Part shown: positions 1-15,667 of the stretch, piece by piece
Position numbering within the stretch: position 1 is the stretch's first letter
Layout of the letters: every line of letters starts with the position of its first letter
DNA from: a virus
Taxonomy: Duplodnaviria > Heunggongvirae > Uroviricota > Caudoviricetes
Virus record (IMG/VR): IMGVR_UViG_2698536647_000004
Span: 1 to 16,655 of that record
Length of the DNA: 16,655 bases
Strand: one strand, 5' to 3'
Notes under the pieces: model-generated
Told to the model about the DNA's origin: nothing
The model's database searches: none
Seen by the model: only the letters and a program-made list of their open reading frames with translations
Position numbers and translations under genes: made by a program

Positions 1-233
1 TCCATGTGCCACGGGCAAAGATCGGAAGGGTTACGCCAGTACCAGCGCAGCCGTTTTTCCATTTCAGGCGCATAACGCTGAACCCAGCGGTAAATCGTGG
101 AGTGATCGACATTCACTCCGCGTTCAGCCAGCATCTCCTGCAGCTCACGGTAACTGATGCCGTATTTGCAGTACCAGCGTACGGCCCACAGAATGATGTC
201 ACGCTGAAAATGCCGGCCTTTGAATGGGTTCAT
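1..233 (-). CDS. tnpA: IS26 transposase, N-terminal 77 codons (truncated by window edge)
   Basis: ATG at 233-231 (minus); the frame runs open to position 1. The translation matches the IS26 transposase N-terminus from memory. Confidence 0.9.
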   Translation of the reverse strand, partial: MNPFKGRHFQRDIILWAVRWYCKYGISYRELQEMLAERGVNVDHSTIYRWVQRYAPEMEKRLRWYWRNPSDLCPWHM

Positions 234-296
234 GTGCAGCTCCATCAGCAAAAGGGGATGATAAGTTTATCACCACCGACTATTTGCAACAGTGCC
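1..296 (-). mobile_element. IS26 (IS6 family), left end only; element continues beyond the window start
   Basis: Minus strand of 283-296 reads GGCACTGTTGCAAA, the 14-bp IS26 terminal inverted repeat, followed by the characteristic leader and the tnpA start MNPFKGRHFQRDIILWAVRWYCKYGISYRELQEMLAERGVNVDHSTIYRWVQRYAPEMEKRLRWYWRNP, recalled from memory as IS26 Tnp26. Confidence 0.9.
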
Positions 297-1240
297 GTTT
301 GCCTTTCCTCATCATCGGTATTGGTCTTAGGAGCACGCAGATCGACTTTGATTTGCTCCAGCATCAGGGGCGGCACTTTCCCGCCATGCGCCTCGATGAA
401 TTCAGCTGCTTCCAGCACTGACCAGTTATTTTCACGCTTTCGTTCGTATGCCAGCTTAACAATGCCAGCTTGCCCCATAGACAAAGCGTGCTTTTCCGCC
501 TCCCGGCTTTCTTTTCGATAGTTATTCCGGATGCTGTAAATGGTGTTGATCAGACTGCTTATCTGCGCGGAACAGCTGTTTAGCATGCTCGCGATACGGT
601 ATTCAGGCGGAGTACCTTCATCATCGTCTTTTTGCTGATCGCGCATTTCCTGCACCAGGCGAATACACGTATCCCTGGCGTTCTCCAGCATAAGGAGATG
701 AGAAAGAGACTTTTCAAGAAGAGTGGTTTCCAGAACATCGGCCCCGGACCGACGCAACATAGCGCGCGCGGCCTTCCGCGCTTCAACGTTATCTATCAGG
801 TAATCGCCAGCTTCGAATTCAAAGCGTTCACCATCATCATCCAGGGTGTCGCGTTCCAGGCGATCACGTAAGGTACGGTGGGCGCGGGTGATCACGTCAT
901 GATCATCAGAACGATCATTTATGCGCTTATTTTGGCGCTTAGCGTTCTCGACTGCGGCTCTGACAACAGCATTAACTCTTTGTTTTTCAGCTATTTCAGC
1001 CACAATATGATCACCTGCACGTTGATCATTAGCGTGATCAATGATCATGCTTTTTAGTGGTTTCCTGACAGGCTTATTTGGCTTGCGGCTGTCCGCTGTC
1101 CTGGTGTCTTCTTTGAAGGCACGGAGATAACGACGTGCGGTATTAGGGTTAAGATTAAACTCGGCGGCATACTGTGCGATGGTGTAACCACCATCCCGCG
1201 CCAGGCGAGCAAAATTCTTCTTGTGATCGTCCCAGGTCAC
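245..1240 (-). CDS. pacA: P1 pacA-like terminase small subunit, 3' end interrupted by IS26; native codons 1240..297 (about 315 aa), last 16 codons of the ORF are read from the IS26 terminus
   Basis: GTG start at 1240 preceded by GGAAG (5-nt spacer) and an in-frame TAA. N-terminal HTH-like segment [24 protein letters not shown] pac-like TGATCA hexamer cluster lies inside the 5' third of the gene, as described for P1 pacA. The ORF tail [16 protein letters not shown] is encoded by the IS26 inverted repeat. Assignment rests on the pac site and context, not on sequence recall. Confidence 0.55.
862..1047. other. pac: pac-like packaging site: two clusters of TGATCA / TGATCG hexamers (each containing a GATC Dam site)
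   Basis: Hexamers on the plus strand: CGATCA 862-867, TGATCA 889-894, TGATCA 900-905, CGATCA 913-918, then TGATCA 1008-1013, 1023-1028, 1035-1040, 1042-1047. This is 4 + 4 hexamers separated by about 90 bp. P1 pac is described as 4 + 3 TGATCA/G hexamers flanking the cleavage region inside pacA. Confidence 0.6.
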
Positions 1241-1325
1241 TTATGCTTCCTTTCGTAAAAACTCTTTTTGACGCGAGGGTAACGAAAGTCACATGTCAAA
1301 AGGCCCGGAACGGGCAAGCAATCAA

Positions 1326-1778
1326 TCAGATACGTGCGGATGTGGCATTACCGTAATAACGGTGCTGACGGGCCACCTTATTGAAAAGTTGACGCGCCAT
1401 TACCCAAGGCTGGTGCTCCCGGCGTTCCTTTTCGTCCTGCGTCATATAGAGTTCGTTCTGGAGTTTTTCATCAAACCGGCGCGGAGCGCGGCTACGGCGA
1501 AAGAATTCAGGATTCAGAGAGTGGATCTGAAATCTACGTGGGCGTGTACTGTCATCAATCAAAACAGACGAATACTTAGACACAGCGATAGCCTTTAAGC
1601 GCAGATAAACATCGCGCTTATCGACATCCAGATGCGGGTATTCCTTTTCAAGAATTGCTGCGAGTTCTTTCGCTGATAGAAGAGATTTAGTGCGGATCAT
1701 GTAATCCGCAATCTCGTACGATGTTATTCGTGAGTGATTTATTTCCATGAAGTGGCGTCCCTGCCAGTTAAGTAACAT
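1326..1778 (-). CDS. Hypothetical 150-aa protein, positionally equivalent to P1 lpa (late promoter activator, gene 10)
   Basis: ORF with ATG at 1778 preceded by AGGTGA. It lies directly upstream of the pacA-like gene and directly downstream of a C1-operator-like motif plus a candidate promoter (TTGCTA, 16 bp, TATTAT on the minus strand, about 1824-1851). I do not recall the Lpa sequence, so the call is by position and size only. Confidence 0.4.
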   Translation of the reverse strand: MLLNWQGRHFMEINHSRITSYEIADYMIRTKSLLSAKELAAILEKEYPHLDVDKRDVYLRLKAIAVSKYSSVLIDDSTRPRRFQIHSLNPEFFRRSRAPRRFDEKLQNELYMTQDEKERREHQPWVMARQLFNKVARQHRYYGNATSARI

Positions 1779-1848
1779 CCTGTCACCTACTGATTAGCCC
1801 ATGTCAACTAATCAACGTGGAATATAATACCCTCGATTAAAGAAATAG

Positions 1849-1865
1849 CAACACATTAGAGCAAT
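1849..1865 (-). promoter_or_regulatory. C1-repressor-operator-like 17-mer ATTGCTCTAATGTGTTG (13/17 to the consensus ATTGCTCTAATAAATTT as I recall it)
   Basis: Read on the minus strand directly after the stop of the DUF968-like gene and upstream of the lpa-like ORF. P1 gene 10 is known to be C1-controlled. Confidence 0.5.
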
Positions 1866-1866
1866 T

Positions 1867-2898
1867 TTATCTAACGCTCGACGAATGACTTGTGATAACG
1901 CCGACTCCAAGCGCGTAATCAAAGAACAATCGTTGATGCATCGCCAGCCTGCCGTGTGTTTTCTCCCAATTATCGCGGTCACGCTCAATATCACGCTGGC
2001 ATGACTGGCACAGAGGAATAGCATAAATGTCATGCGCGCATAATCGACTATGACGAACTATATAAGGCGTAATGTGAGCGCCAGCTCCCGCCGCTCCACA
2101 CCCACAGCATGGACGGGAAGCAACAAAGTCCATGTACTCAGGTAATTTTAGCGATTGCAGTTTTGGTATTTTGAAATGCTCGGAGTCAACATCCACAGGG
2201 CATACTTTTGCACGCATCGGCGCAGCGCGTTCTTCCATCATCTGAACATATGCTGTAGCGCGATCGTCATACGGGCGAATATCCGCCTCTTTCAGAGGTC
2301 CGCTATCCTGCGTTGCGGCTTTCATCTTATTTATTGATATACGGCAAACTTCTTCCGGCATCAGGTGCATCATGTTGCGCATGAAAGCCCACCAGCACAG
2401 TTCCTGAATACTTAAATCATGGCTATCTGAAAGGCCCATTTCCTGACGGGCGACATCCAGTATCCAGTTAACGCGATTATTATGCAGCGTTTCTTTCAGC
2501 TCATTAAAACCACGCATCCGGTAATGGTTATCGTGATGCCAGCACAGCAACACCGCGCTATTGTCTCGTTCTGCGTGGACAATATGGTTGTCACACCAGC
2601 TACGATCTGCGGCCTGGCATTGCCCCTCTTTCCTGCGCAACCACGCCACCAGCGCGTCAATTCCACCAATACGGCGAAACAGTTCATCGCTGTTAAAAAA
2701 CGGCTGCAACGCCTCATTTGTTGCCATAGTTTGCTCGGAAACAACGAGGCCGTCGTCCATGTGCTCGATTAACTCACGCGGCACCGGCTCCATAATAAAT
2801 TTACGGCCAGCCTCCACCAGCTTTCTGACTTCCTGATCCACTTTGAATGTGGCGACGCCAAGCTCTTTTTGTACAAAGGGAGTAATTACGGCTTTCAC
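1867..2898 (-). CDS. DUF968-like prophage protein (343 aa) with a C-terminal Cys/His cluster; positionally like P1 pdcA
   Basis: GTG start at 2898 preceded by AAGGTG. The C-terminus carries CCGCG...AHITPY...[15 protein letters not shown], a putative zinc-binding or HNH-like motif. Resemblance to the DUF968 family (e.g. E. coli YdfU) is by recall. Confidence 0.55.
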
Positions 2899-2925
2899 AT
2901 CACACCTTTCATCACTGATTGGGCT

Positions 2926-3105
2926 TTATCTGCTGCCCGGCATTCTCTGTTTAAGCACAACCATTTCCTGACGGCATAACACAGCAATAGCGGTCCTGGC
3001 ACCAATTTGCTTACCAACCAGGTATTGCTTTACCTTGCGGCGACTCACGCCATCAAGAAGCATCTTTAACGCTTCACGGGACAATTTGTTGTATTTGCGT
3101 GCCAT
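2926..3105 (-). CDS. Small basic protein (59 aa) apparently translationally coupled to doc; positionally like P1 pdcB
   Basis: ATG at 3105 lies 4 nt after the doc stop with GGAG 7 nt upstream. Translation MARKYNKLSREALKMLLDGVSRRKVKQYLVGKQIGARTAIAVLCRQEMVVLKQRMPGSR. The longer ORF to 3126 would overlap doc. Confidence 0.45.
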   Translation of the reverse strand: MARKYNKLSREALKMLLDGVSRRKVKQYLVGKQIGARTAIAVLCRQEMVVLKQRMPGSR

Positions 3106-3109
3106 TAAT

Positions 3110-3490
3110 CTACTCCGCAGAACCATACAATCTACGTAACGTGTCGGCGACAGAAGATACAGATATCTCTCCGGTCGCAGCCCCTACGGTAAGGTCTGCC
3201 AGTTCAGGTGAATCAAATACCTGCACCCCGTTACGGCGTAGAAATAACAGCGCACTGTTTAGCGCGGTACGCTTATTGGCATCATTGAATATATGCCCTC
3301 TCGCTGTAGCCACCAGGTAGGTGGCGGAGACTTCGAAAAGGTCGGTGATCTCTTCGTAGGCAACTCTGGCCTGAACTCTCCCGATAATGGCCTCTGCCCT
3401 ACCCGGATCTGACATTCCCGGCAGGCCGCCGTAGCGGTTTATATTCGCATCATGAAGCGCAATAAGTTCTTCCGGTGATATATGCCTCAT
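3110..3490 (-). CDS. doc: Doc toxin (Fic/Doc family kinase) of the phd-doc addiction module
   Basis: 126 aa starting [16 protein letters not shown], with the Fic/Doc motif HIFNDANKR. Closely resembles P1 Doc from memory. Its start overlaps the phd stop (TAATG). Confidence 0.95.
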
Positions 3491-3711
3491 TATCGGTTAA
3501 CCAGTTCCTTGTTGGTGGAGTCCAGGGTGTCAAACAGGGATGCAAATTCAGCATCCAGCGCCGCTTTTTTGTAGGCTTCGAAAGTAGCCTTGCTGACAAT
3601 TACTGCTGGCTCACGGCCTCTGCGGGTGATTTCAACCTCTTCCCCGGCCTCAACATTGTTGAGCACTTCAGAAAGGTTGCCGCGCGCGGTACGGAAGTTA
3701 ATGGATTGCAT
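3490..3711 (-). CDS. phd: Phd antitoxin (prevent-host-death)
   Basis: 73 aa, [49 protein letters not shown]..., matching P1 Phd from memory. RBS GAGGT upstream of the ATG at 3711. Confidence 0.95.
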
Positions 3712-3760
3712 AAATACCTCGTGTACTCGTTATGTGTACACAATTATAAACTTCACAGGC
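3712..3760 (-). promoter_or_regulatory. phd-doc promoter with palindromic operator half-sites
   Basis: On the minus strand a perfect TATAAT (plus 3743-3748) is followed by the palindrome TGTGTACACA (3733-3742) and GAGTACAC (3721-3729). The P1 phd-doc operon is autoregulated through palindromic operator sites overlapping its promoter. Confidence 0.6.
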
Positions 3761-3887
3761 ATAAAGCACCAGCACTTTGCGGCTTAACAAACCTCTAGGC
3801 AGGTCATTCGTAGCCTAATGTCCGAACTGCTAAAGCATCCAAGTTGCTGTAGAATCACCGCCAATTACATAAGCCTGAAATAAGTGG

Positions 3888-5450
3888 ATGAAAATGACAA
3901 GTATTCAACAACGTGCAGAGCTTCATCGTCAAATCTGGCAAATTGCTAACGATGTCAGGGGTTCGGTCGATGGATGGGATTTTAAGCAATACGTTCTGGG
4001 CGCACTTTTCTACCGTTTTATCAGCGAAAATTTTTCCAGCTATATTGAAGCCGGTGATGACAGTATCTGTTATGCGAAACTGGATGACAGCGTAATTACT
4101 GATGACATTAAAGACGATGCCATCAAAACTAAAGGCTACTTCATCTACCCCAGTCAGCTTTTCTGCAACGTAGCGGCGAAAGCAAATACCAATGACAGAC
4201 TGAATGCAGATTTAAACAGCATCTTCGTTGCTATCGAAAGTTCTGCTTACGGTTATCCTTCAGAAGCTGACATCAAAGGTTTGTTTGCTGATTTCGATAC
4301 CACCAGTAACCGCCTGGGTAACACCGTTAAGGATAAAAATGCCCGCCTGGCTGCGGTTCTGAAAGGGGTTGAAGGGTTAAAACTTGGTGACTTCAACGAA
4401 CATCAGATTGACCTGTTCGGTGATGCCTATGAGTTCCTGATCTCTAACTATGCGGCAAATGCCGGTAAGTCAGGCGGCGAGTTCTTTACACCGCAGCACG
4501 TCTCTAAGCTGATTGCACAACTGGCTATGCACGGGCAGACCAACGTTAACAAAATCTACGACCCGGCAGCGGGTTCCGGCTCACTGTTGTTGCAGGCGAA
4601 AAAACAGTTTGATAACCACATCATCGAAGAAGGCTTTTTCGGTCAGGAAATCAACCATACGACCTATAACCTGGCGCGTATGAACATGTTTTTGCACAAT
4701 ATCAACTACGACAAGTTTGATATCAAGCTGGGTAATACACTGACTGAGCCGCACTTCAGAGATGAAAAACCGTTTGATGCCATCGTTTCTAACCCGCCGT
4801 ATTCGGTGAAATGGATTGGCAGCGATGACCCGACGCTGATTAACGATGAACGTTTTGCCCCGGCTGGCGTTCTGGCCCCCAAATCCAAAGCTGACTTTGC
4901 GTTTGTATTACATGCGCTGAACTATCTTTCGGCCAAAGGTCGCGCTGCGATTGTCTGCTTCCCGGGCATTTTTTACCGTGGCGGCGCGGAGCAGAAAATC
5001 CGTCAGTATCTGGTCGATAATAACTATGTCGAAACCGTAATTTCACTGGCTCCGAACCTGTTCTTTGGCACCACCATTGCCGTAAACATTCTGGTTCTGT
5101 CTAAACATAAAACGGATACCAACGTTCAGTTTATTGACGCCAGCGAACTGTTCAAAAAAGAGACTAACAACAATATCCTGACCGATGCCCATATCGAACA
5201 GATTATGCAGGTATTTGCCAGCAAGGAAGATGTTGCTCATCTGGCGAAATCTGTTGCGTTTGAGACTGTTGTCGCGAATGACTATAACCTGTCGGTGAGC
5301 AGCTATGTGGAAGCGAAAGATACTCGCGAAATTATCGATATCGCTGAGCTGAATGCTGAGCTGAAAACCACGGTCAGCAAAATCGACCAGTTGCGCAAAG
5401 ATATTGATGCGATTGTGGCTGAAATTGAAGGCTGCGAGGTGCAGAAATGA
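3888..5450 (+). CDS. hsdM: Type I restriction-modification N6-adenine DNA methyltransferase subunit HsdM (type IC, EcoR124-like)
   Basis: 520 aa with the AdoMet motif [10 protein letters not shown] and the catalytic NPPY motif (SNPPYS). It overlaps hsdS by 4 nt (ATGA). Confidence 0.97.
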
Positions 5451-6652
5451 GCGAGATGAGTTATCTGGAAAAATTGCTGGATGGGGTTGAGGTTGAGTGG
5501 AAGACACTTGGGCAAACTTGCAAAATTGAAACAGGAAAGCTTAATGCGAATGCGGCTGTTGATGATGGAGAGTATATGTTCTTCACGACAGCCAAAGAGA
5601 CAAGCAAAATTGATAAATTCCGCTGGGATACAGAGGCATTGCTGATTGCAGGCAATGCGAATGTTGGTGAGGTGAAGCATTACATCGGCAAGTTTGAGGC
5701 TTATCAGCGCACCTATGTTCTGACAAATTTCGACGAAAATGTAAGTGTTAGATTTTTGTATTTTGTGCTTAGCCATAGCCTGAAGAAATATCTCGAGGAA
5801 AGAACAAATAGCGCGGCAATGACATATATCGTGCTATCAACCTTAGAGAATTTCCCTATCCCCATCCCCTGCCCGGATAATCCGGAAAAATCCCTTGCCA
5901 TCCAGTCTGAAATCGTTCGGATTCTGGATAAATTTACTGCACTTACCGCTGAGCTTACCGCTGAGCTTAACATGCGTAAAAAACAGTACAACTACTATCG
6001 CGACCAGTTGTTGAGTTTTAAAGATGGTGAGGTTGAGTGGAAGACTTTGGGGGAAATTGGAGATTTTACATATGGATATGCAGCCAAAGCCATGGATTCA
6101 GGAGATGCCCGTTTCGTGAGAATTACTGACATAAATAAAGACGGGAAGCTATCGAAAGAAAACCCAATGTACGTTGAATTAAATGAGGAAAATGAGAAAT
6201 ATACCTTAGACAAAAATGATTTACTCATGGCAAGAACTGGGGCAACCTTTGGTAAAACAATGATTTTTGAAGAAGATTATCCAGCAGTATACGCTGGTTT
6301 TTTAATAAAGTTGAACCTAAATAAAACGATTATTAATGCCAAATATTACTGGCACTTTGCACAAAGTGATTTTTTTTGGGAACAGGCTAATAAATTAGTA
6401 TCTGGTGGTGGGCAACCACAGTTTAATGCTAATGCACTGAAACAAGTCAGAGTACCTATTCCATACCCATCTCACCCTCAAAAATCTTTAGACGAACAGG
6501 GGCGTATTGTGGATATTCTGGATAAGTTTGATGCAATCGCAGCTTCCATCACCGAAGGTCTTCCGCGTGAAATCGAGTTGCGCCAGAAACAATACGAATA
6601 CTACCGTGATTTACTGTTCAGTTTCCCGAAACCTGAAACTGCCAGTAATTAA
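5447..6652 (+). CDS. hsdS: Type I restriction-modification specificity subunit HsdS with two target-recognition domains
   Basis: 401 aa. Conserved central repeat region ([26 protein letters not shown]) and the matching C-terminal conserved region ([18 protein letters not shown]). The N-terminal motif VEVEWKTLG is repeated at the start of TRD2 (GEVEWKTLG). Confidence 0.95.
5944..5967 (+). repeat. Perfect 2 x 12-bp tandem repeat (TACCGCTGAGCT) encoding TAEL-TAEL in the HsdS central spacer region
   Basis: Direct read: 5944-5955 equals 5956-5967, preceded by a degenerate copy encoding TAL. In type IC systems the copy number of this repeat sets the spacer length of the recognition site (two copies in EcoR124I, three in EcoR124II, as I recall). 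Confidence 0.85.
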
Positions 6653-6679
6653 TTGATCATTGCTACCGATCGGACCACC

Positions 6680-6745
6680 TTAACACCCGGTCAGTATATA
6701 GACTATTTTTTACGCGCCGGAAGTCACCATTACCCCCCTTCCGGC
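6680..6745 (+). promoter_or_regulatory. Candidate hsdR promoter (TTAACA 6680-6685, TATATA 6695-6700 region) and a leader stem-loop (GCCGGAAG 6716-6723 / CTTCCGGC 6738-6745)
   Basis: Type IC hsdR is known to have its own promoter separate from hsdMS. The hexamers are weak; the 8-bp inverted repeat with a 14-nt loop is read directly from the sequence. Confidence 0.35.
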
Positions 6746-6773
6746 CCTTGCCAGACGGCACAAAGGATGCGCT

Positions 6774-9700
6774 ATGACTCATCAGACACACACCATTGCT
6801 GAATCCAATAACTTTATCGTTCTTGATAAGTACATCAAAGCTGAGCCAACAGGCGACAGCTACCAGAGCGAATCGGACCTGGAACGTGAACTGATTCAGG
6901 ACCTGCAAAATCAGGGTTATGAATTTATTTCCGTAAAATCACAGTCGGCAATGCTGTCCAATGTTCGGGAACAGCTTCAGAGCCTCAATGGTGTGATGTT
7001 TAATGACAGCGAGTGGCGGCGCTTCACGGAGCAGTATCTGGACAACCCCAGCGATGGTATTCTGGATAAAACCCGTAAAATCCATATCGACTATATCTGC
7101 GACTTTATTTTTGATGACGGGCGACTTGAGAACATCTATTTGATAGATAAAAAGAATCTCATGCGCAATAAGGTGCAGATTATCCAGCAGTTTGAACAGA
7201 CGGGTTCTCATGCTAACCGTTATGACGTCACGATCCTGGTTAATGGTTTACCGCTGGTGCAAATCGAACTAAAAAAACGCGGGGTGGCGATTCGTGAGGC
7301 TTTCAACCAGATACATCGTTACAGTAAAGAGAGTTTTAACAGCGAAAATTCCCTGTTTAAGTATCTGCAACTGTTTGTCATTTCTAACGGCACCGATACC
7401 CGTTATTTTGCCAACACGACAAAGCGCGATAAAAACAGTTTTGACTTCACCATGAATTGGGCGAAATCAGACAACACGCTGATTAAAGACCTCAAAGACT
7501 TTACCGCTACCTTTTTCCAGAAACATACTCTGCTGAATGTTCTGGTGAACTACAGCGTTTTTGACAGTAGTCAGACGCTACTGGTGATGCGACCGTACCA
7601 GATTGCCGCCACCGAGCGCATTCTGTGGAAAATTAAGAGTTCCTTTACAGCGAAGAACTGGTCAAAACCGGAAAGCGGTGGGTATATCTGGCACACTACC
7701 GGTTCTGGTAAAACCCTCACCAGCTTTAAAGCCGCGCGTCTGGCAACAGAGCTGGACTTTATTGATAAAGTCTTCTTTGTGGTCGACAGGAAAGACCTCG
7801 ATTACCAGACCATGAAGGAATATCAGCGTTTTTCGCCAGACAGCGTCAACGGCTCGGAAAATACCGCAGGCCTTAAACGAAATCTGGATAAGGACGATAA
7901 CAAAATTATCGTCACTACTATTCAGAAACTCAATAACCTGATGAAAGCAGAAAGCGACCTGCCTGTATATAATCAGCAAGTGGTGTTTATATTTGATGAA
8001 TGCCACCGCAGCCAGTTTGGAGAAGCGCAGAAAAACCTGAAGAAGAAATTCAAACGCTATTATCAGTTTGGTTTTACCGGCACACCTATTTTCCCGGAAA
8101 ACGCCTTAGGCTCAGAAACGACCGCCAGCGTATTTGGTCGTGAATTGCATTCGTATGTAATTACCGATGCGATTCGTGATGAAAAAGTGCTCAAATTCAA
8201 GGTGGACTACAACGATGTGCGGCCACAGTTTAAGTCTTTAGAGACAGAAACTGACGAGAAAAAACTAAGTGCGGCTGAAAATCAGCAGGCGTTTCTTCAT
8301 CCCATGCGTATACAGGAAATTACGCAATATATTCTGAATAACTTCCGCCAGAAGACGCACCGTACTTTCCCTGGCGCAAAAGGTTTTAATGCTATGTTGG
8401 CAGTGAGCAGCGTGGATGCTGCAAAAGCCTATTACGCGGCGTTTAAACGGTTACAAGAGGAAGCCGCTAATAAATCTGCAACTTATAAACCGCTGCGTGT
8501 TGCGACAATCTTCTCCTTTGCCGCTAATGAAGAACAAAATGCCATTGGTGAAATTTCCGATGAAACTTTTGATACCAGCGCAATGGACAGCAGTGCTAAA
8601 GAGTTTCTTGACGCTGCAATTCGTGAGTATAACAGCTATTTTAAAACTAACTTCAGCACCGACGGTAACGGTTTTCAGAACTACTATCGCGATTTAGCCC
8701 AACGGGTTAAAAATCAGGATATCGATCTGTTAATTGTCGTTGGGATGTTTTTAACCGGCTTCGACGCTCCAACATTGAACACGCTATTCGTCGATAAAAA
8801 CTTGCGTTTTCACGGCCTGATGCAGGCATTTTCCCGCACCAACCGCATTTATAACGCCACTAAAACCTTCGGTAACATTGTCACTTTTCGGGATCTGGAA
8901 CGCTCAACCATTGATGCCATAACGCTGTTTGGTGATAAAAATACCAAAAATGTGGTGTTAGAAAAGAGTTATGCAGAGTATATGGAAGGTTTTACTGATG
9001 CTGCCACCGGTGAAGCCAAACGCGGCTTTATGGCAGTAGTTTCAGAACTGGAACAACGGTTCCCTGACCCTGCCAGTATTGAAAGTGAAAAAGAGAAGAA
9101 AGACTTCGTTAAACTGTTTGGCGAATACCTGCGTGCCGAGAACATCCTGCAAAACTATGATGAATTTGCCACGCTAAAAGCCCTGCAACAAATCGATCTT
9201 AGCGATCCTGTTGCGGTAGAAAAATTCAAAGCAGAACATTATGTGGATGATGAAAAGTTCGCTGAATTGCAAACAATTCGTCTCCCTGCTGAACGCAAGA
9301 TTCAGGATTATCGTTCTGCCTATAACGATATTCGCGACTGGCAGCGCCGTGAGAAAGAAGCTGAGAAAAAAGAGAAATCAACCACTGACTGGGATGACGT
9401 GGTTTTTGAGGTCGATTTGCTGAAGTCTCAGGAAATAAACCTGGATTATATCCTTGGACTGATTTTCGAACACAACAGACAAAATAAAGGCAAGGGCGAA
9501 ATGATCGAAGAGGTCAAACGCTTAATTCGTTCAAGCCTGGGGAACCGGGCGAAAGAGGGCCTGATGGTCGATTTTATTCAGCAAACGAACCTGGATGATT
9601 TACCAGACAAAGCCAGTATCATTGAGGCATTCTTTACGTTTGCTCAACGCGAACAGCAACGTGAAGCAGAAGCATTGATAAAAGAAGAAAATCTCAATGA

Positions 9701-9890
9701 AGATGCAGCAAAACGCTATATTCGCACGTCTTTAAAACGCGAATACGCCACCGAAAATGGCACAGAATTAAACGAAACATTACCAAAACTTAGTCCGTTG
9801 AATCCGCAATATAAAACGAAAAAACAGGCAGTTTTCCAGAAAATCGTCTCGTTTATTGAGAAGTTTAAAGGCGTAGGCGGAAAAATATAG
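6774..9890 (+). CDS. hsdR: Type I restriction enzyme R subunit HsdR (type IC; same 1038-aa length I recall for EcoR124I HsdR)
   Basis: PD-(D/E)xK-type nuclease motif in the N-terminal domain ([19 protein letters not shown]), helicase Walker A TGSGKT and a DECH box ([10 protein letters not shown]). RBS AAGGATG before the ATG at 6774. Confidence 0.97.
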
Positions 9891-9903
9891 CCCAATTCGT
9901 GTT

Positions 9904-9937
9904 TTTCTTGCGGGTTCTTAATTAAACCCGCAAGAGC
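9904..9937. other. Stable stem-loop (stem of at least 9 bp, CTTGCGGGT / ACCCGCAAG) just after the hsdR stop; function unknown
   Basis: Direct read. The T-run is on the 5' side of the stem on the plus strand, so it is not a canonical intrinsic terminator in either orientation. Confidence 0.5.
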
Positions 9938-9969
9938 TCGTGGGGTTCCAAATGGCTAATATACTCCCC

Positions 9970-10056
9970 TTACCCATGCGCGACGATGCCGCCAAAAGTG
10001 ATAGAGAACAGCCAGAAATAGATCGCGGCCATAATGATTTTGAATGCCGTGTTCAT
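9970..10056 (-). CDS. Candidate small hydrophobic protein (28 aa, MNTAFKIIMAAIYFWLFSITFGGIVAHG)
   Basis: ATG at 10056 with AGGAG 8 nt upstream. The whole peptide looks like a single transmembrane helix. Not in the supplied ORF track (too short). It lies between a C1-operator-like site and the end of hsdR. Confidence 0.3.
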   Translation of the reverse strand: MNTAFKIIMAAIYFWLFSITFGGIVAHG

Positions 10057-10084
10057 ATTTTCAGCTCCTGTGATTGATTGGATA

Positions 10085-10115
10085 CATGCCGCGCCTTGCG
10101 GCATGTTTTTATTTT
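10085..10115 (+). terminator. Rho-independent terminator, plus orientation
   Basis: GC-rich 8-bp stem CATGCCGC (10085-10092) / GCGGCATG (10098-10105) with loop GCCTT, followed by TTTTTATTTT. It is the first canonical terminator downstream of hsdR. Confidence 0.7.
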
Positions 10116-10138
10116 CACTTTCTCTGTTTTAAAAATCA

Positions 10139-10155
10139 AGATTTATTAGAGCAAT
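10139..10155 (-). promoter_or_regulatory. C1-repressor-operator-like 17-mer ATTGCTCTAATAAATCT (16/17 to the recalled consensus)
   Basis: Read on the minus strand immediately after the stop of the HAD-like gene. The weak promoter-like hexamers TTGATT and GAAAAT follow it. Confidence 0.6.
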
Positions 10156-10661
10156 TATTGTTGATGAAGAAGCGCATTTTCGTACTCTCTGACCATTAAC
10201 GTAAGCACGCCGTGATGCCTGAAAACACGCGCTACTTCAATCTTATCTTCCAGCGCGAACGCAATTTTACTTAGACCAATTTTCTTAAGGAGATCAATCT
10301 TTGCTGGACCATCATTTCTGTCATCGGTGGCAGGACGCATAGATAGCAAAGGCTCAGCCCCATTTGTTACGTGCTTACGCAACCAGGCTCGTGTTTTATC
10401 CCTTGCGATCTCACAGCGCCCGGTTACAAACCAGACCGTGTAAACGTTAAATAACTGGCGCACCATATCAATAACTGGAGTGATGGGAGTATCGGTGTCA
10501 CAGGCGAGATTAAACTCGTTCCAGTCCTTTGTTACTGCACCTTTACCTGGTGGCGGAAGCAAATGCAGTCTGTCTTCAGTTGCCTCTGATATTGTTCCAT
10601 CAATATCGACTATGACGATATACGGACGTTCCTGGTGTGCGTGTTTATTGAAAATACTCAA
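10155..10661 (-). CDS. HAD-superfamily phosphatase-like protein (168 aa)
   Basis: TTG start at 10661 preceded by a strong AGGAGG (4-5 nt spacer) and an in-frame upstream stop. HAD motif I DIDGT (VIVDIDGTIS). Possibly equivalent to a P1 phosphatase gene, but I cannot confirm that from memory. Confidence 0.6.
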   Translation of the reverse strand: MSIFNKHAHQERPYIVIVDIDGTISEATEDRLHLLPPPGKGAVTKDWNEFNLACDTDTPITPVIDMVRQLFNVYTVWFVTGRCEIARDKTRAWLRKHVTNGAEPLLSMRPATDDRNDGPAKIDLLKKIGLSKIAFALEDKIEVARVFRHHGVLTLMVREYENALLHQQ

Positions 10662-10732
10662 ATGCCCTCCTCATTGGACGAAAAAATGCTGGTGGGCGCA
10701 CTCCACCAACATTAAAAGTGACACTGTAACTA

Positions 10733-11995
10733 TCAGCGAACGTAAATAGTGCCGCCGTTCTCTTTTTCCCATGCATCGCTACGTGCATAGCAAACATCGA
10801 GAAGTCTTCTTGCCGCTGTTTCCTCTAAACCCAATTCGACAACCAACTGTTCATGACGGCGGGTAACCACATCAAACAACGTATGCAGCCCTTTAGTTGC
10901 CAGTTCATCAATGAATTCCGGTTCGAACGGTAGCTCTGCATCTGCCAACATAACCTCTTGCGCCCACTCGACACGGCGGACCAGTTCCGGGCGGCGGCTT
11001 TCCATCTCTTTACAGATCAATTCATGGAAGAACTCTACCCAACCTTCCGGCTGGAACTCGCGGAAAATGGCCAACGGCTGGAAGTTTGGCATCAACCATT
11101 CGTTGATACGGATATCAATGGCATAGCCCATGTCGCAGCAGAACTGATAAGCAAAGTCCAGCTTAGAAACGATATAAGGACGCTCGTTATTGAACTCTTT
11201 AGGCGATGAGATCCCATAAGCCAGGAGGCGCGGGAAGAATGAGATTTGCCCTAACGTCGGATGAAGTTTGCTTGCAGGGAAACGGCGCTCAGTAATGCCA
11301 TACATTTCCTTCTTGAGCGTCGCAAATTTGGCATTCTCATTAACCAGCGCGGTAACCTCTGCTTTTTTATTAGCAAATGCCACGCGCGCTTCGCTTGCAT
11401 CTTTAATAGTTTTTTTGAGCTGTTGGTTAAGGTCGGCGACCTGTTTACGCAGTTCCTGCCGCTCGCTTTTAGCTTTGTTATAGCGTTTCTCAAGGTTAAA
11501 AGGATCAAGTTTCATGATCTCTTTATATTGAGATTTTAGCGTTGAAATCTGTGAGTTCCGCAGTTCAACCATCGCGGTCATTTCATTGAGTTTTGTTTCC
11601 AGCTCAATGCTTATACGTTCGGCATTATCAGCACGCTGGTTGGCGTCATGCGTCGCATCGTCGATCGCATCCTGTTGCTGGCGTTTCAAATGTTCAATTT
11701 GCAGCTGAAGCTCTTCAATTTCTTTACCCTTCAGACCGAGATCCAACTGCATATTTTCAGCTGCATCTACCAGGGAGTTATGGCTATCAGCTTCTGCGTT
11801 ATAAACATCAATAAGCTGTGCGTGAAGCATCTCCGCTGACTGAACCGCATTATCAAAAAAACGTGCTGTGAGGTCATCACAACTAACGCGGCGTTGCGCG
11901 GCCCGGATGTTCTGGATAATGGCCGGGATACCGGCATTCAGGACATCAGGGATAGATACATTTTCGATTGATTGGTTTTGTGCTGAAGTGCTCAT
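10733..11995 (-). CDS. Hypothetical 420-aa protein: long N-terminal coiled-coil region plus a C-terminal domain of unknown function
   Basis: ATG at 11995. Residues about 90-230 are heptad-rich (EIEELQLQIEHLKRQQQ...ELRKQVADLNQQLKK). I do not recognise any catalytic motif in the C-terminal 190 aa. Confidence 0.7.
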   Translation of the reverse strand: MSTSAQNQSIENVSIPDVLNAGIPAIIQNIRAAQRRVSCDDLTARFFDNAVQSAEMLHAQLIDVYNAEADSHNSLVDAAENMQLDLGLKGKEIEELQLQIEHLKRQQQDAIDDATHDANQRADNAERISIELETKLNEMTAMVELRNSQISTLKSQYKEIMKLDPFNLEKRYNKAKSERQELRKQVADLNQQLKKTIKDASEARVAFANKKAEVTALVNENAKFATLKKEMYGITERRFPASKLHPTLGQISFFPRLLAYGISSPKEFNNERPYIVSKLDFAYQFCCDMGYAIDIRINEWLMPNFQPLAIFREFQPEGWVEFFHELICKEMESRRPELVRRVEWAQEVMLADAELPFEPEFIDELATKGLHTLFDVVTRRHEQLVVELGLEETAARRLLDVCYARSDAWEKENGGTIYVR

Positions 11996-11996
11996 T

Positions 11997-12215
11997 TCAA
12001 AGTTCCGTATTAGCTTGTGCTTCGGTCATTTTTCCTAAGTATGAAGGAGGAAGGACTACGCAATTTGTATCCAGTCCCTCACCTATGGCAGCCTGTAAAA
12101 TTCTGGCTAAGGTGAGTCTCTTGTTGCGATACCTGGTGATGACATGCCTGATACCGCCGGTCGGCGTAACAAAGGCGATCAGCCAGTAGTGATATTTCCG
12201 TCGGAATGGCCACAT
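11997..12215 (-). CDS. Hypothetical small protein (72 aa if started at the ATG at 12215), stop 1 nt before the ATG of the 420-aa gene
   Basis: The ORF track gives 11997..12272, but that 5' extension overlaps the minus-strand terminator. The ATG at 12215 has AGGGTG upstream. The tight spacing to the next gene suggests coupling. Confidence 0.4.
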   Translation of the reverse strand: MWPFRRKYHYWLIAFVTPTGGIRHVITRYRNKRLTLARILQAAIGEGLDTNCVVLPPSYLGKMTEAQANTEL

Positions 12216-12229
12216 AGTGCACCCTGTAG

Positions 12230-12246
12230 ATTGCTCTAATAAAAAA
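12230..12246 (+). promoter_or_regulatory. C1-repressor-operator-like 17-mer ATTGCTCTAATAAAAAA (14/17), plus orientation
   Basis: Direct read. It forms an inverted pair with the site at 12279-12295. Confidence 0.5.
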
Positions 12247-12267
12247 CGTGATGAGTGTACATCACGT
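12237..12267 (-). terminator. Rho-independent terminator, minus orientation, ending the glycosyltransferase-like operon
   Basis: Stem ACGTGATG (12246-12253) / CATCACGT (12260-12267) with a 6-nt loop. On the minus strand the stem is followed by TTTTTTATT. Confidence 0.7.
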
Positions 12268-12278
12268 TTCAAAAATAT

Positions 12279-12295
12279 GGAATTATTAGAGCAAT
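12279..12295 (-). promoter_or_regulatory. C1-repressor-operator-like 17-mer ATTGCTCTAATAATTCC (14/17), minus orientation
   Basis: Read on the minus strand directly after the stop of the glycosyltransferase-like gene. The following 30 nt closely resemble the sequence after the site at 10139-10155. Confidence 0.55.
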
Positions 12296-12296
12296 A

Positions 12297-12998
12297 TTAT
12301 TCTGATTCTCGCTCAAAAAACGAGCTGATAAGGGGAAGCCAATCCTCTGACACTTCGCGAGGTCGCGGTTTGCCGTGGAAAAAGATTATTCGGCAGTCTT
12401 TTGGTAATGCCCCATTCCCCCTGGAGTAACGCGCGCTCGCATATTTCGAACCAGGTTCCACAACATCGGCCTTGTAACTTACAAACCATCCTGGATACAG
12501 ATCCTGAAATGCTGGTGTATCATCGCCCATAACCTTTCGTAAGAACCCCTGGTCACCCCAGCACTCAGTAGTGACACAACGAGAAATCCAACCTTCCGGA
12601 TCTTGCCAGAATGAACTCCAGATATGCGCTTTAACACTATTTGGTATCCACAGGGCACCGCTGCCACGATATTGTGGATGGTAAAAATCCCTAAGCATGG
12701 TGAAGCTGGTTGGTGGATGCTCTAGGATTGGGCGTATATCACCGGCAATAACCGTGTCCAAATCCAGATAGAACAGATCATCGGTTATATCCGGTCGGAA
12801 CAACTCGATTTTCGCCCACCAGCCACGGCACTTTTGCCACTGGTTGATCAATGGGACAACTTTGACGCCAGGTACATGTAAACGCTTCAGGTCTGTCAGG
12901 CAAATAATTTCATAGCCTTTTGGCAGTTGATTAACCAGCCACTGCACATCGGAAGCGTTATAGTCACCACCAGAGCGAAAAACTAAAGCAATCTTCAT
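12297..12998 (-). CDS. Hypothetical protein (233 aa), possibly a glycosyltransferase (DxD-like LDLD motif)
   Basis: ATG at 12998 overlaps the stop of the upstream phosphatase gene (ATGA). The N-terminus [13 protein letters not shown] and [12 protein letters not shown] suggest a nucleotide-sugar transferase fold, but this is weak. Confidence 0.45.
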
Positions 12999-13687
12999 GC
13001 TGCACCATCACCTTTCACTTTCATCAATGTCAGGTTTCCGCAAAATACGGCACCAGTGTCGATATACTGCTGATTCCAGAATGTCTTCGGGCTTTTCACC
13101 GGAGTGTGACCAAAGATAAAACGATCTGCGCCCGAAATTTCGCCACCAATATCATCCATCGAATCACTGATACGCTCGCGCGCCCAGACAACGTTGAAAA
13201 GCGGCACCTCCTTACCGAATTGGTATTCATTATCCGGATAGTCGGCATGGGCTATAACGATAGTTTCTTGCCCGGTGTTCAACTCAATGATATAGGGCAG
13301 ACGCTTTACCAGCTCCACCAGCGCCCAGGCTAATATTTCCTGATCAGTGTCCAGCATGAAGAACCATTGTCCGCCATTCATTAGCCAGTTATTCACGTTG
13401 CCATCTGGACTTAACGCATCAATCATCAGCCGCTCATGGTTCCCCATCACTGCCCTGAACCAGGGCATCTGCAATAGTTCCAGACATTCGACATTTTCAG
13501 TACCGCGATCGATAAGGTCGCCGACCGATATCAGTAAATCCTGCGCCGGGTCAAAATCCACACGATGGAGTTCGGACATCAGTCTGGTGTAGCAACCATG
13601 CAGATCACCAACAACCCAGACATTCCTGTATTTGGTACCGTCGATACGGTGATAAATTGTGGGTGCCATCATGTATTCTTCAGCCAT
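12995..13687 (-). CDS. Ser/Thr protein phosphatase of the lambda PPase (calcineurin-like metallophosphoesterase) family; likely P1 ppp-like
   Basis: Motifs GDLHGC, GDLIDRG, GNHE and a C-terminal GHTP. Strongly resembles the lambda phosphatase (nin region ORF221) from memory. The true start may be the ATG at 13669, which overlaps the upstream stop by 1 nt. Confidence 0.85.
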
Positions 13688-14295
13688 TCTTTAAGAGTCA
13701 TCTGTGGAATGCCTCCCATTTTCCCGCATGAAACAACGTCAATCTGTTCACGCGCAGACTGGAATAACAAAGGCAGGTGACTTAGATTTTTTGGCGTGCC
13801 GCCGGAGTGAACGCGTGGTTCTTGTGTAGCGTCAACGCCCACCAGGGCGACATGTTTGAATCCGATATGGAAAGCCAGGTTCAGAGCGCCATATGCACTA
13901 TTGCCGCTGGCAATTTCATTCTCATCTTCGCAAAGTCCGAAATGTGCGGACCAACGCCACGCCCACCACTCGGGAGAATTCGTATTTTTTGGCTCCATGC
14001 CACGTTCAGCCACACGACGGAAGCACAGAACGCCGTCTCTGACTTCACGTTCTTTAACATCGGGTAGTGCCATGCAATAACAAACACCACGGCGACGGCG
14101 GCCACGACCAACGCGCCGCATATTGTCTGGCGATGGATCAAGTGTGAAAAAATAAGAAGCGCGGTTCAGCCAGTCGATGGCCCCATTGACCGCTATAATC
14201 GGCACTCCGCGCGGCGCAACAAAGTTTGCGGCGCTTGGGCCACTGCCGACGATAATAACGCGATCACTGCCTCTAAATTTATTCTTGGGAAACAT
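13669..14295 (-). CDS. MptE-like / DUF115-like protein, paralog A (208 aa)
   Basis: Motifs VIIVGSGPS ... IIAVNGAID ... [12 protein letters not shown] ... VALVGVDAT resemble the Rossmann-like core of PF01973 (MptE/Maf family), by recall. It is a paralog of the next gene. Confidence 0.45.
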
Positions 14296-14855
14296 TGAAT
14301 TGCACAGCTCCTACTTGCATTCAAAATATGTAAATCTGCGTGTTTTTTGCGGGTATCCAGGAACTGCTGTTGCCATTTTGAAATAGACACCTGCGTTGGA
14401 TTCCGTAGGGCTTGAGGGTGTGCTCCATGCCAATGAAGGCCGTTTTGCAGAGAACAGTCATAGCCGACTAATACAACTACTTCAGCCCCTGATTCAGCCG
14501 CCAGACTGATAGTCTGCGCGCCGCTATTAACCCCTTCAGCCGGTCCACAATATCGCCTGTACTCCAACGAAAATGATTTCGCCGCCGCCAGGTTGGCTGT
14601 CACTTTGCGGAATCTCCCTCCCGGTATGGTGGATCCGTATTGCTTCCACCATGACAAATCACCGGCGTATAAGGCATAAATGTCATCGAACATCTGCCAG
14701 GAATTGTTAACCGCGATGATTGAACAGCCAGTTTTTTCTATAGCAGCACAGTCCTCACGAGTGAGTGACGGACCGCTACCGACACAAAAAACAGTCCTAG
14801 TCGCCCTGGGTGGTATGTTCATTCTCAGCTGCAAATTCAGCCTCCAGGCGAGCAT
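14193..14855 (-). CDS. MptE-like / DUF115-like protein, paralog B (about 208-220 aa)
   Basis: Motifs VFCVGSGPS ... IIAVNNSWQ ... SGAQTISLAA ... VVLVGYDCS. Start uncertain: ATG 14855, TTG 14834 (GGAGG 6 nt upstream) or ATG 14822. The 3' end overlaps paralog A by 103 nt in another frame. Confidence 0.45.
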   Translation of the reverse strand: MLAWRLNLQLRMNIPPRATRTVFCVGSGPSLTREDCAAIEKTGCSIIAVNNSWQMFDDIYALYAGDLSWWKQYGSTIPGGRFRKVTANLAAAKSFSLEYRRYCGPAEGVNSGAQTISLAAESGAEVVVLVGYDCSLQNGLHWHGAHPQALRNPTQVSISKWQQQFLDTRKKHADLHILNASRSCAIQCFPRINLEAVIALLSSAVAQAPQTLLRRAECRL

Positions 14856-14994
14856 TCATTTCAGCGATTACCGGGTCCACTACAGCATCTGCTTCCTGTT
14901 CATTACGCGGCATGATCGATGCCAGCGATTCATAATTAGCCTTGGATGACACAATTATTCTCCCGATGTTAATGTGCGCTATATCAAAGAGCAC
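14797..14994 (-). CDS. Questionable small ORF (65 aa, or 38 aa from an internal ATG)
   Basis: ORF track only. There is no convincing RBS at either candidate start. Confidence 0.25.
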   Translation of the reverse strand: MLFDIAHINIGRIIVSSKANYESLASIMPRNEQEADAVVDPVIAEMNARLEAEFAAENEHTTQGD

Positions 14995-15018
14995 ATATGC
15001 ACTAATTAATTTATTATT

Positions 15019-15381
15019 TTAAGCAGCATACAACCACTTGTCGCCGTTCAATACATGCTCAATAGCCTCACCCTTTTTAAGGCTTATGTATTCCAGGATG
15101 GCGGTTATCGCTTGTTCTGCACCATACGCAAGAACGACGTAGTAACCTTCCTCTCTAAGCCTGCGCATCCAGGCGATCTGCTCTTTCGTCGGGGCTTTAC
15201 CATTTGGTTCTTTAAGCTCAATTCGCATGCCGTGATAAATACCGCATGCTTTATCGAGACTCATGTCCGGATAACCTTTTTTCTGCCCTTCAGCCTTCAT
15301 TTTCCCGGCGGTTGCTTTTGAACGTTTCCCTCTGAAGTGGTTTACTGAATTTGGCCACCTGAACAGAGGTGATATGCTCAC
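15019..15381 (-). pseudogene. VRR-NUC domain nuclease gene, 5' end replaced by the IS911 terminus (native part 15019..15332)
   Basis: Core KGYPDMSL ... IELKEPNGKAPTKEQIAWMRRLREEGYYVVLAYG fits the VRR-NUC pattern (G.PD ... E.K ... Q). The first 16 codons of the ORF are encoded by IS911 inverted-repeat sequence, and the usual N-terminal portion of the domain is missing. Confidence 0.65.
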
Positions 15382-15667
15382 CTCAGAACAACACAGGTGC
15401 CATAATGAAAAAAAGAAATTTCAGCGCAGAGTTTAAACGCGAATCCGCTCAACTGGTCGTTGACCAGAATTACACCGTGGCAGATGCAGCCAGCGCTATG
15501 GATGTCGGCCTTTCCACAATGACGCGATGGGTGAAACAATTACGTGATGAGCGGCAGGGAAAAACACCAAAAGCCTCCCCCATTACCCCGGAACAAATTG
15601 AAATCCGTGAGCTCAGGAAAAAGCTACAACGTATTGAAATGGAAAATGAAATATTAAAAAAGGCTAC
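15333..15667 (+). mobile_element. IS911 (IS3 family) left-end fragment: left inverted repeat plus a truncated orfA (ATG 15405), interrupted by IS30
   Basis: Begins TGAAGTGG...; orf[89 protein letters not shown] matches IS911 OrfA (InsN) from memory. The frameshift heptamer A AAA AAG is at about 15655-15661, and IS30 sequence starts at 15668. Confidence 0.85.

Follow-up and report, generated by a model that had tools for sequence, protein, structure and literature searches.

A type IC hsdMSR locus beside phd-doc in P1-like plasmid prophage DNA

Type IC hsd loci with P1-homologous flanks were reportedly described by Tyndall et al. in 1997 (Mol Microbiol 23:729). The initial annotation of the DNA studied here drew on such reports, and the P1 RefSeq annotation bears them out by marking both breakpoints: in the P1 GenBank annotation, 87969-88647 is flagged as homologous to DNA preceding EcoDXXI hsd, 84263-84482 to DNA following EcoDXXI hsdR, and 84399-84482 to DNA following R124/3 hsdR. 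The arrangement of phd-doc and hsdMSR in P1-like DNA is already known and is common. The interval from pmgT to humD constitutes variable region 8 of P1-like phage-plasmids (PMC9603915), and at least one P1-like phage considered below, phi456, forms plaques (PMC10967188). Type I restriction-modification (R-M) families are defined by three criteria, including amino-acid sequence similarity to family members, and the number of TAEL repeats in a type IC HsdS sets the spacer length (PMC3874165).

Here we describe one such locus in a 16,655-nucleotide stretch of viral DNA (IMG/VR record IMGVR_UViG_2698536647_000004; herein the window). Its closest records are IncY plasmids, and the near-identical pCE1537-E is typed IncY, which along with p0111 is a replicon type of P1-like phage-plasmids (Punavirus); the replicon itself lies outside the window. 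We find it very probable that the window derives from a P1-like (IncY-type) plasmid prophage whose humD-pmgT block has been replaced by a type IC hsdMSR cassette beside the native phd-doc.

An EcoR124-family gene set next to phd-doc

The initial annotation placed doc, phd, hsdM, hsdS and hsdR where Table 1 lists them, and the open reading frames (ORFs) coincide exactly. Gene identities are backed by Pfam, PADLOC and NCBIfam, as well as by near-identity to solved EcoR124I chains. The gene order M-S-R holds, with hsdM and hsdS overlapping by 4 nt and hsdR set apart by a 121-bp gap (ORF coordinates), and phd-doc and hsdM are indeed divergently oriented, 176 bp apart.

Table 1. Features of the window, with strand and basis of assignment
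Feature	Position	Strand	Details and basis
IS26 end, abuts and truncates pacA; left limit of P1-derived DNA	1-297	.	match
pacA', P1 terminase subunit gene, without about 80 C-terminal codons	294-1240	-	P1 alignment
lpa, P1 late promoter activator	1326-1778	-	synteny, 97.4% nucleotide identity; annotated in pCE1537-E
pdcB (DUF968)	1867-2898	-	Pfam DUF968 E 6.8e-46; P1 synteny
pdcA	2926-3126	-	P1 synteny
doc, toxin of P1 addiction module	3110-3490	-	126 aa; Pfam Fic/DOC
phd, antitoxin of P1 addiction module	3490-3711	-	73 aa; Pfam PhdYeFM
Pphd promoter	3743-3771	-	P1 feature (P1 comparison-segment 4967-4995) mapped by alignment; -10 TATAAT
Type IC hsd cassette, non-homologous to P1	3788-9965	+	6178 bp, 43.9% GC; alignment breakpoints
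hsdM, N6-adenine methyltransferase subunit	3888-5450	+	520 aa; TIGR00497 at 649 bits
hsdS, specificity subunit	5447-6652	+	401 aa; WP_001293319.1
HsdS variable recognition domains	about 5506-5860 and 6056-6544	+	comparison with other hsd-bearing records and EcoR124 HsdS; domain-wise matches in plasmids
12-bp tandem repeat, 2.3 copies, encodes LTAELTAEL	5942-5969	+	Tandem Repeats Finder, translation
hsdS-hsdR intergenic region, candidate Pres	6653-6773	+	consensus scan
hsdR, motor and nuclease subunit	6774-9890	+	1038 aa
28-aa hydrophobic ORF, P1-derived DNA	9970-10056	-	translation; region identical to P1
Terminator-like hairpin and T-run, P1-derived DNA, downstream of hsdR	10084-10116	+	consensus scan
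P1pmgT, P2pmgT and C1 operator OpmgT (Op88)	10111-10155	-	P1 features (comparison-segment 8644-8688), conserved in alignment
pap, pmgS, pmgR, pmgQ, ppp, pmgP, pmgO, pmgN, truncated pmgM	10155-15332	-	98.0% P1 identity, P1 annotation, ORFs
IS3-family left end (15333-15667), interrupted by IS30 (~15668 to window end)	15333-16655	.	NCBIfam transpos_IS3, transpos_IS30

Generic Pfam and NCBIfam models do not discriminate among type I families. Comparison with characterised proteins bears out the type IC (EcoR124) assignment made initially from gene order and size. Over their full lengths, HsdM is identical to EcoR124 HsdM (PDB 7bst_D) at 518 of 520 residues (99.6%), and HsdR, with the predicted size of 1038 aa, to EcoR124I HsdR (PDB 2w00_A) at 1018 (98.1%), so that similarity to the EcoR124 family extends to both subunits. 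The Pfam domains of HsdR are HSDR_N, SWI2_SNF2, T1R_D3-like and EcoR124_C. HsdS starts and ends inside a conserved region and carries a central conserved region with TAEL repeats; its N-terminal, central and C-terminal regions are identical to those of EcoR124 HsdS (PDB 7bst_A). Membership of another type I family (IA, IB, ID or IE), with a likeness to type IC merely in gene order and size, was considered and rejected: we found nothing in its favour, and it can be given practically no weight against these identities and the type IC conserved regions and TAEL repeat of HsdS. The match to EcoKI HsdM (type IA) is weak and limited to residues 172-407, the catalytic core (E about 3e-17). Judged by sequence, hsdMSR is a complete EcoR124-family R-M gene set, and since its genes are full length and exceed 98% identity with proteins already characterised, the pattern of the locus is no accident. 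Given that identity, subunit complementation and antibody cross-reactivity with the type IC family are expected.

By analogy with the nearly identical EcoR124I, hsdM and hsdS would be co-transcribed to yield an M2S methyltransferase. The two recognition domains of HsdS would determine the bipartite sequence that this enzyme methylates, whose halves are predicted to lie 6 bp apart. HsdR would be made from a separate promoter region and join to form R2M2S, which would translocate and cut unmodified incoming DNA, and phd-doc would separately kill or arrest plasmid-free segregants. Gene content, protein identities, breakpoints and distribution are direct observations; for the window locus we infer enzymatic activity, the use of promoters, the length of the spacer and the direction of transfer. 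The initial annotation saw two stabilisation or defence functions coupled on one mobile backbone, and this holds in the sense of co-location. The cassette might instead act mainly as a second addiction module, reinforcing phd-doc by post-segregational killing rather than serving defence, and the two loci do lie close together and are co-mobile onto IncF plasmids. According to reviews, however, EcoR124I shows restriction alleviation and, because assembly of the enzyme is controlled, can be gained or lost without the cell being killed (PMC12707154; PMC3874165). This speaks against type IC systems being strongly addictive and makes such a role very improbable.

P1-derived flanks and the replaced block

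The flanks were initially taken to be P1-type DNA, and alignment to P1 supports this on both sides at about 97-98% identity. Together, 8.9 kb of the window is collinear with P1 at 97.4-98.0% identity: the left flank (window 290-3787) is 97.4% identical, and the right flank (9966-15332) is 98.0% identical to P1 79115-84482. Homology stops at window 3787 (P1 87970, the 3' end of humD) and picks up at 9966 (P1 84482), 4 nt past the stop codon of the 28-aa ORF. The alignment thereby defines the insertion junctions at 3787/3788 and 9965/9966, and since P1 homology occupies both flanks, the cassette between them replaces P1 84483-87969, which comprises humD, lxr, hot, upfO/N/M and pmgV/U/T and is absent from the window. 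The two cassette junctions have no direct or inverted repeat of 7 nt or longer in common, of the kind that would signal site-specific or transpositional insertion, and no recombination-site signature marks them.

On the left, phd and doc form a type II toxin-antitoxin pair: the genes are adjacent, the proteins are near-identical to those of P1 (Phd 73/73, Doc 125/126), and Pphd is intact, lying 16 nt within the P1 side of the junction. Farther out, pdcB encodes 343 aa, compared with 347 aa in P1. The P1-derived DNA is bounded by insertion sequences at both ends of the window. The IS26 end is a 100% match to the IS26 copies of pCE1537-E and IncF plasmid p4; the pacA alignment begins at P1 comparison-segment 1501, where the gene occupies 1259-2452. 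On the right, the IS3-family/IS30 stretch forms the limit, and IS30 is annotated in pCE1537-E. IS26 thus cuts pacA, and pmgM is likewise interrupted by IS elements, which makes a full complement of phage genes doubtful. The window copy sits in an element that is rearranged and probably defective in packaging, and it may no longer move as a phage.

This damage would fit a cassette that has decayed, lost its function and is simply carried along by a defective prophage, and inactivated copies do exist, as suggested by the hsdS region of phi456, which contains about 1.3 kb of extra DNA. In the window, however, hsdM, hsdS and hsdR are all full length and free of frameshifts, HsdM and HsdR differ from their EcoR124I counterparts by just 2 and 20 substitutions, respectively, and 28 plasmids retain the identical hsdS allele, which falls in a cluster of 209 protein sequences. 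We therefore regard decay as highly unlikely.

The direction of the replacement can be weighed from junction frequencies and base composition. In PLSDB, 709 plasmids carry the phd|hsdM junction, as do about one in eight complete E. coli genomes (697 of 5426); the hsdR|pap junction is present in 258 plasmids. Among phd-side matches, phd|hsdM is at least as frequent as the phd|humD form, as it might be were hsdMSR ancestral in P1-like elements and the P1 humD-pmgT block the later arrival; that block is itself flagged as variable and is lower in GC (46.5%) than its flanks (47.7-49.2%). The cassette nevertheless deviates more in GC, and the genes of the P1 block are under C1 and late-promoter control, built into phage regulation. 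Moreover, the C1-controlled PpmgT persists beside the cassette without its genes, an apparent scar of pmgT loss, and an ancestral hsdMSR is accordingly the less probable order of events by a good distance, though it is the alternative with the most in its favour. Replacement of the humD-pmgT block by hsdMSR remains our preferred reading. The classical EcoDXXI and EcoR124 loci share these junctions with the window, as do hundreds of other plasmids, and all probably go back to a single ancestral replacement in a P1-like element; doc-phd-hsdMSR would later have moved as a block into IncF and other plasmids through IS-mediated rearrangements.

Transcription signals and HsdS specificity

The initial annotation proposed a separate promoter region for hsdR. 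The 121-bp gap contains one promoter-like site (TTAACA-18-TATTTT, 6680-6709; consensus scan), which is consistent with the proposal. Promoter-like sites in the region show no enrichment over shuffled sequence (7 found, 11.6 expected), so the scan lends no statistical support to a promoter for hsdM or hsdR, and the candidate hsdR promoter is put forward from what is known of other type IC loci.

Downstream of the cassette, P1pmgT and P2pmgT now face the 3' end of hsdR. Their C1 operator, OpmgT (Op88), reads ATTGCTCTAATAAATCT on the - strand, and no canonical - strand terminator was found between PpmgT and hsdR. Since PpmgT is intact and aimed antisense at hsdR with no such terminator intervening, prophage induction in P1-like carriers could drive transcription across hsdR and cut restriction during lytic growth. 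We consider this a long shot; if true, the circuit governing phage immunity would be linked to type I R-M. In an Rfam scan, no family reached its gathering score anywhere in the window.

The two TAEL repeats of HsdS predict a 6-bp spacer in the target. Both recognition domains differ from those of EcoR124I, and hence the target is not GAA(N6)RTCG. A PDB search for the specificity of HsdS returned EcoR124 HsdS alone, with unrelated recognition domains, and a search of 5.8 billion proteins returned many E. coli HsdS alleles, each described merely as "restriction endonuclease subunit S". The second domain (TRD2) hit an EcoKI-type HsdS profile (NCBIfam) at 50.8 bits, where the cut-off is 662, and this is too weak for a half-site to be deduced from it. 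As a lesser possibility, the allele may specify an as yet uncharacterised recognition sequence with an N6 spacer. The target bears on the transformation and phage susceptibility of many carrier strains, among them E. coli TOK-001 and CE1537.

Comparison with known type IC loci and P1-like elements

Because the arrangement is documented and very common, the value of the window lies in annotation and teaching rather than discovery. It is a clean, complete example of what was inferred in 1997 from fragments, namely a P1-like prophage whose humD-pmgT locus houses a type IC R-M system; at this phage-plasmid hot spot, genes for the SOS response and morphogenesis are exchanged for defence genes. It helps to explain the spread of EcoR124-family systems, with their phd-doc neighbour, among enterobacterial plasmids. 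Phages vB_EcoM-673R5 and phi456 have both cassette junctions, and phi456 suggests that pmgT, pmgU and pmgV are dispensable. IncF p4 has them too, but there P1 DNA continues for just 84 bp downstream before IS1 begins, and the pdcA-doc-phd-hsdMSR block is also found on IncF conjugative plasmids.

Phage P1 (NC_005856) is collinear with the window in the pacA-phd and pap-pmgM regions (97-98% identical) and carries humD-lxr-hot-upfONM-pmgVUT (3487 bp) where the window has the longer hsdMSR cassette. Backbone, junctions and cassette are all shared with phi456, vB_EcoM-673R5, pCE1537-E and NZ_AP018397.1. The last is 100% identical to the window across the junction query and hsdS, while pCE1537-E is 99.98% identical over window 294-16655 and carries an additional 632 bp separating IS26 from pacA. 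Such P1-like hsd carriers vary only in the HsdS recognition domains and in local IS insertions.

EcoR124I and EcoR124II (plasmids R124 and R124/3) share the hsdM-hsdS-hsdR order of the window, with phd-doc likewise upstream and the same breakpoint with P1 DNA 3' of hsdR. The conserved regions of EcoR124I HsdS are identical to those of the window HsdS, with two TAEL repeats in both, whereas in EcoR124I and EcoR124II both recognition domains differ from those of the window. P1 DNA downstream extends for 5.4 kb in the window but for only 84 bp, followed by IS1, at EcoR124I/EcoR124II. The EcoDXXI and EcoprrI loci resemble the window in having long P1 homology on both sides and, according to the P1 annotation, the same junctions at P1 87969 (upstream) and 84482 (downstream). 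They differ from it in the HsdS allele, which in the window has two TAEL repeats rather than three, and in the matter of prrC, which is absent from between the hsd genes of the window.

A type IC system divergent from phd-doc

The genes given in the initial annotation (doc, phd, hsdM, hsdS and hsdR) are all present in the ORF table, and Pfam, PADLOC and NCBIfam agree on the expected family for each. The divergent arrangement it described is borne out, with 176 bp separating phd-doc from hsdM, as are the M-S-R order and the size of HsdR. Phd and Doc match their P1 counterparts at 73/73 and 125/126 residues.

Features of the window and their positions
Feature	Position	Strand	Details
IS26 end	1-297		adjoins pacA (294-1240); last ~80 pacA codons gone, plus pacB at this position
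pdcB	1867-2898	-	343 aa (347 aa in P1); 12-nt indel, surrounding DNA 97% identical
doc	3110-3490	-	126 aa; Fic/DOC
phd	3490-3711	-	73 aa; PhdYeFM
Putative hsdM promoter interval	within 3788-3887
hsdM	3888-5450	+	520 aa; HsdM_N, N6_Mtase
hsdS	5447-6652	+	401 aa; 4-nt overlap with hsdM; Methylase_S x2
Candidate hsdR promoter	6680-6709		TTAACA-18-TATTTT, in gap 6653-6773
hsdR	6774-9890	+	1038 aa; 121-bp gap before; HSDR_N, SWI2_SNF2, T1R_D3-like, EcoR124_C
Hydrophobic ORF	9970-10056	-	28 aa (MNTAFKIIMAAIYFWLFSITFGGIVAHG); P1-derived, between pap and former pmgT; no annotation in P1 RefSeq
Terminator-like hairpin	10084-10116	+	P1-derived DNA, downstream of hsdR
P1pmgT, P2pmgT, Op88	10111-10155	-	intact
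IS3-family element (IS911/ISSen4-like OrfA)	from 15333		inside pmgM; inverted repeat begins TGAAGTGG
IS30	about 15668 to window end		interrupts IS3-family element

In a search of all PDB chains, the alignment of HsdR with EcoR124I HsdR (2w00_A) spans the whole protein and scores 2274 bits, and HsdM aligns with EcoR124 HsdM (7bst_D) at 1161 bits; counted on the printed alignments, the differences from the EcoR124I chains amount to 2 of 520 residues in HsdM and 20 of 1038 in HsdR. The type IA EcoKI HsdM aligns with the catalytic core only (E about 3e-17). The proposed membership of the type IC (EcoR124) family is thus upheld, and the same identities exclude derivation of the hsd genes from another type I family.

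Because HsdM and HsdR are nearly identical to those of EcoR124I, a similar mechanism would be expected: HsdM2-HsdS would methylate a bipartite, adenine-containing target, and HsdR would join the methylase to form an endonuclease that translocates on DNA using ATP and cleaves DNA lacking the modification. Assembly of EcoR124I passes through a cleavage-incompetent R1M2S intermediate (PMC12707154). The phd-doc pair would act separately, through post-segregational killing; a chiefly addictive role for the restriction-modification system itself conflicts with reviews of EcoR124I restriction alleviation (PMC12707154, PMC3874165). The candidate hsdR promoter and the hairpin come from a consensus scan, whose promoter-like matches were not enriched over shuffles; the hsdM promoter is likewise putative.

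Replacement of a P1 segment

P1, P7, RCS47, SJ46 and other phage records cover the window by megablast, apart from the hsd part. The P1 flanks that had been proposed were confirmed by direct BLAST against P1 (NC_005856), which fixed both breakpoints: window 290-3787 corresponds to P1 87970-91480 (97.4% identity) and window 9966-15332 to P1 79115-84482 (98.0%). Since the two blocks break at 3787/9966, the cassette (3788-9965; 6178 bp, 43.9% GC versus 47.6-49.3% in the flanks) replaces P1 84483-87969 (3487 bp, 46.5% GC), which carries humD, lxr, hot, upfO, upfN, upfM, pmgV, pmgU and pmgT. On the left, the cassette meets P1 DNA at the humD stop codon, 16 nt past the -35 element of the phd promoter, which is therefore intact; on the right, it does so 6 nt upstream of the P1 pmgT start codon and 4 nt past the stop of the 28-aa ORF. 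No repeats common to both junctions were found.

While pmgT, pmgU and pmgV are gone, both pmgT promoters and the C1 operator Op88 persist, oriented antisense toward the 3' end of hsdR. This C1-controlled promoter and operator, orphaned beside the cassette, disfavour the opposite direction of exchange, in which hsd would be ancestral and the humD to pmgT block derived. The antisense elements could, speculatively, link restriction to prophage induction; they are not needed for hsd function, because the cassette copies on IncF plasmids lack them.

Distribution and HsdS alleles

The phd/hsdM junction (401-nt spanning query, at least 80% covered) occurs in 709 PLSDB plasmids and 697 of 5426 complete E. 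coli genomes; the other phd-side matches end at the junction and run on into humD. A 391-nt query spanning the hsdR/pap junction is fully covered in 258 plasmids, and in many further plasmids, mostly conjugative, it is matched only to window 10049, 84 bp into P1 DNA. The conjugative IncF plasmid p4 (NZ_MT077882.1; 1215-9461) carries pdcB'-pdcA-doc-phd-hsdMSR collinear with the window, then exactly 84 bp of P1 DNA, then IS1. Near this block lie further genes that resemble defence genes: an AAA ATPase, vapBC and a DUF3800 protein.

These junctions recur in two P1-like phages with deposited sequences, vB_EcoM-673R5 and phi456. Since plaques of phi456 form on MC1061 (PMC10967188), phage production appears possible without pmgT, pmgU and pmgV. 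Its hsdS region (phi456 record, 3013-5450) is ~1.3 kb longer than that of the window and is split into three annotated ORFs, one a 'baseplate hub protein', which points to disruption or rearrangement of the gene in this plaque-forming phage.

Among the compared records, only the hsdS recognition domains vary (about 5506-5860 and 6056-6544). Some plasmids share with the window the first target-recognition domain alone or the second alone, the kind of module exchange for which type IC systems are classically known. HsdS aligns with EcoR124 HsdS over its full length and is identical only in the N-terminal, central and C-terminal conserved regions, both target-recognition domains being unrelated. 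The central region reads LTAELTAEL, encoded by 2.3 copies of a 12-bp repeat (5942-5969). Among type IC enzymes, a 6-bp spacer accompanies two TAEL repeats (EcoR124I) and a 7-bp spacer three (EcoR124II, EcoDXXI, EcoPrrI) (PMC3874165; table in PMC12707154); we therefore predict an N6 spacer. HsdS residues 207-350 (window 6065-6500), in the C-terminal recognition domain, weakly match the N-terminal recognition domain of the EcoKI-type HsdS profile PRK09737 (50.8 bits, well short of the 662 cut-off), which offers a lead to the half-site and no more. The exact hsdS allele occurs in 28 plasmids, and its protein cluster has 209 member sequences; no source among these matches names its specificity. 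The intact ORFs and the conserved allele make it unlikely that the cassette is a decayed remnant.

State of this copy and precedents

The records nearest to the window are two plasmids of E. coli, NZ_AP018397.1 and the IncY-typed pCE1537-E; compared with the window, pCE1537-E has 632 more bp between IS26 and pacA. Insertion sequences lie at both limits of the P1-derived DNA and, given the loss of pacA and pacB sequence at IS26, this copy is probably a rearranged, packaging-defective derivative and not an intact phage.

ORFs, EcoR124I identities and P1 alignments together confirm the original observation of a type IC locus beside phd-doc in P1-type DNA and support its interpretation. The layout itself is not new and is found widely. 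The window breakpoints are those of three P1 RefSeq misc_features: 87969-88647 (98% identity to an E. coli conjugative plasmid upstream of the EcoDXXI hsd locus), 84263-84482 (96%, downstream of the EcoDXXI hsd locus) and 84399-84482 (98%, plasmid R124/3 downstream of hsdR). The humD to pmgT segment exchanged in this copy has been published as variable region 8 of P1-like phage-plasmids (PMC9603915). By this annotation, R124/3 presents the same situation as IncF p4, with its 84 bp of P1 DNA.
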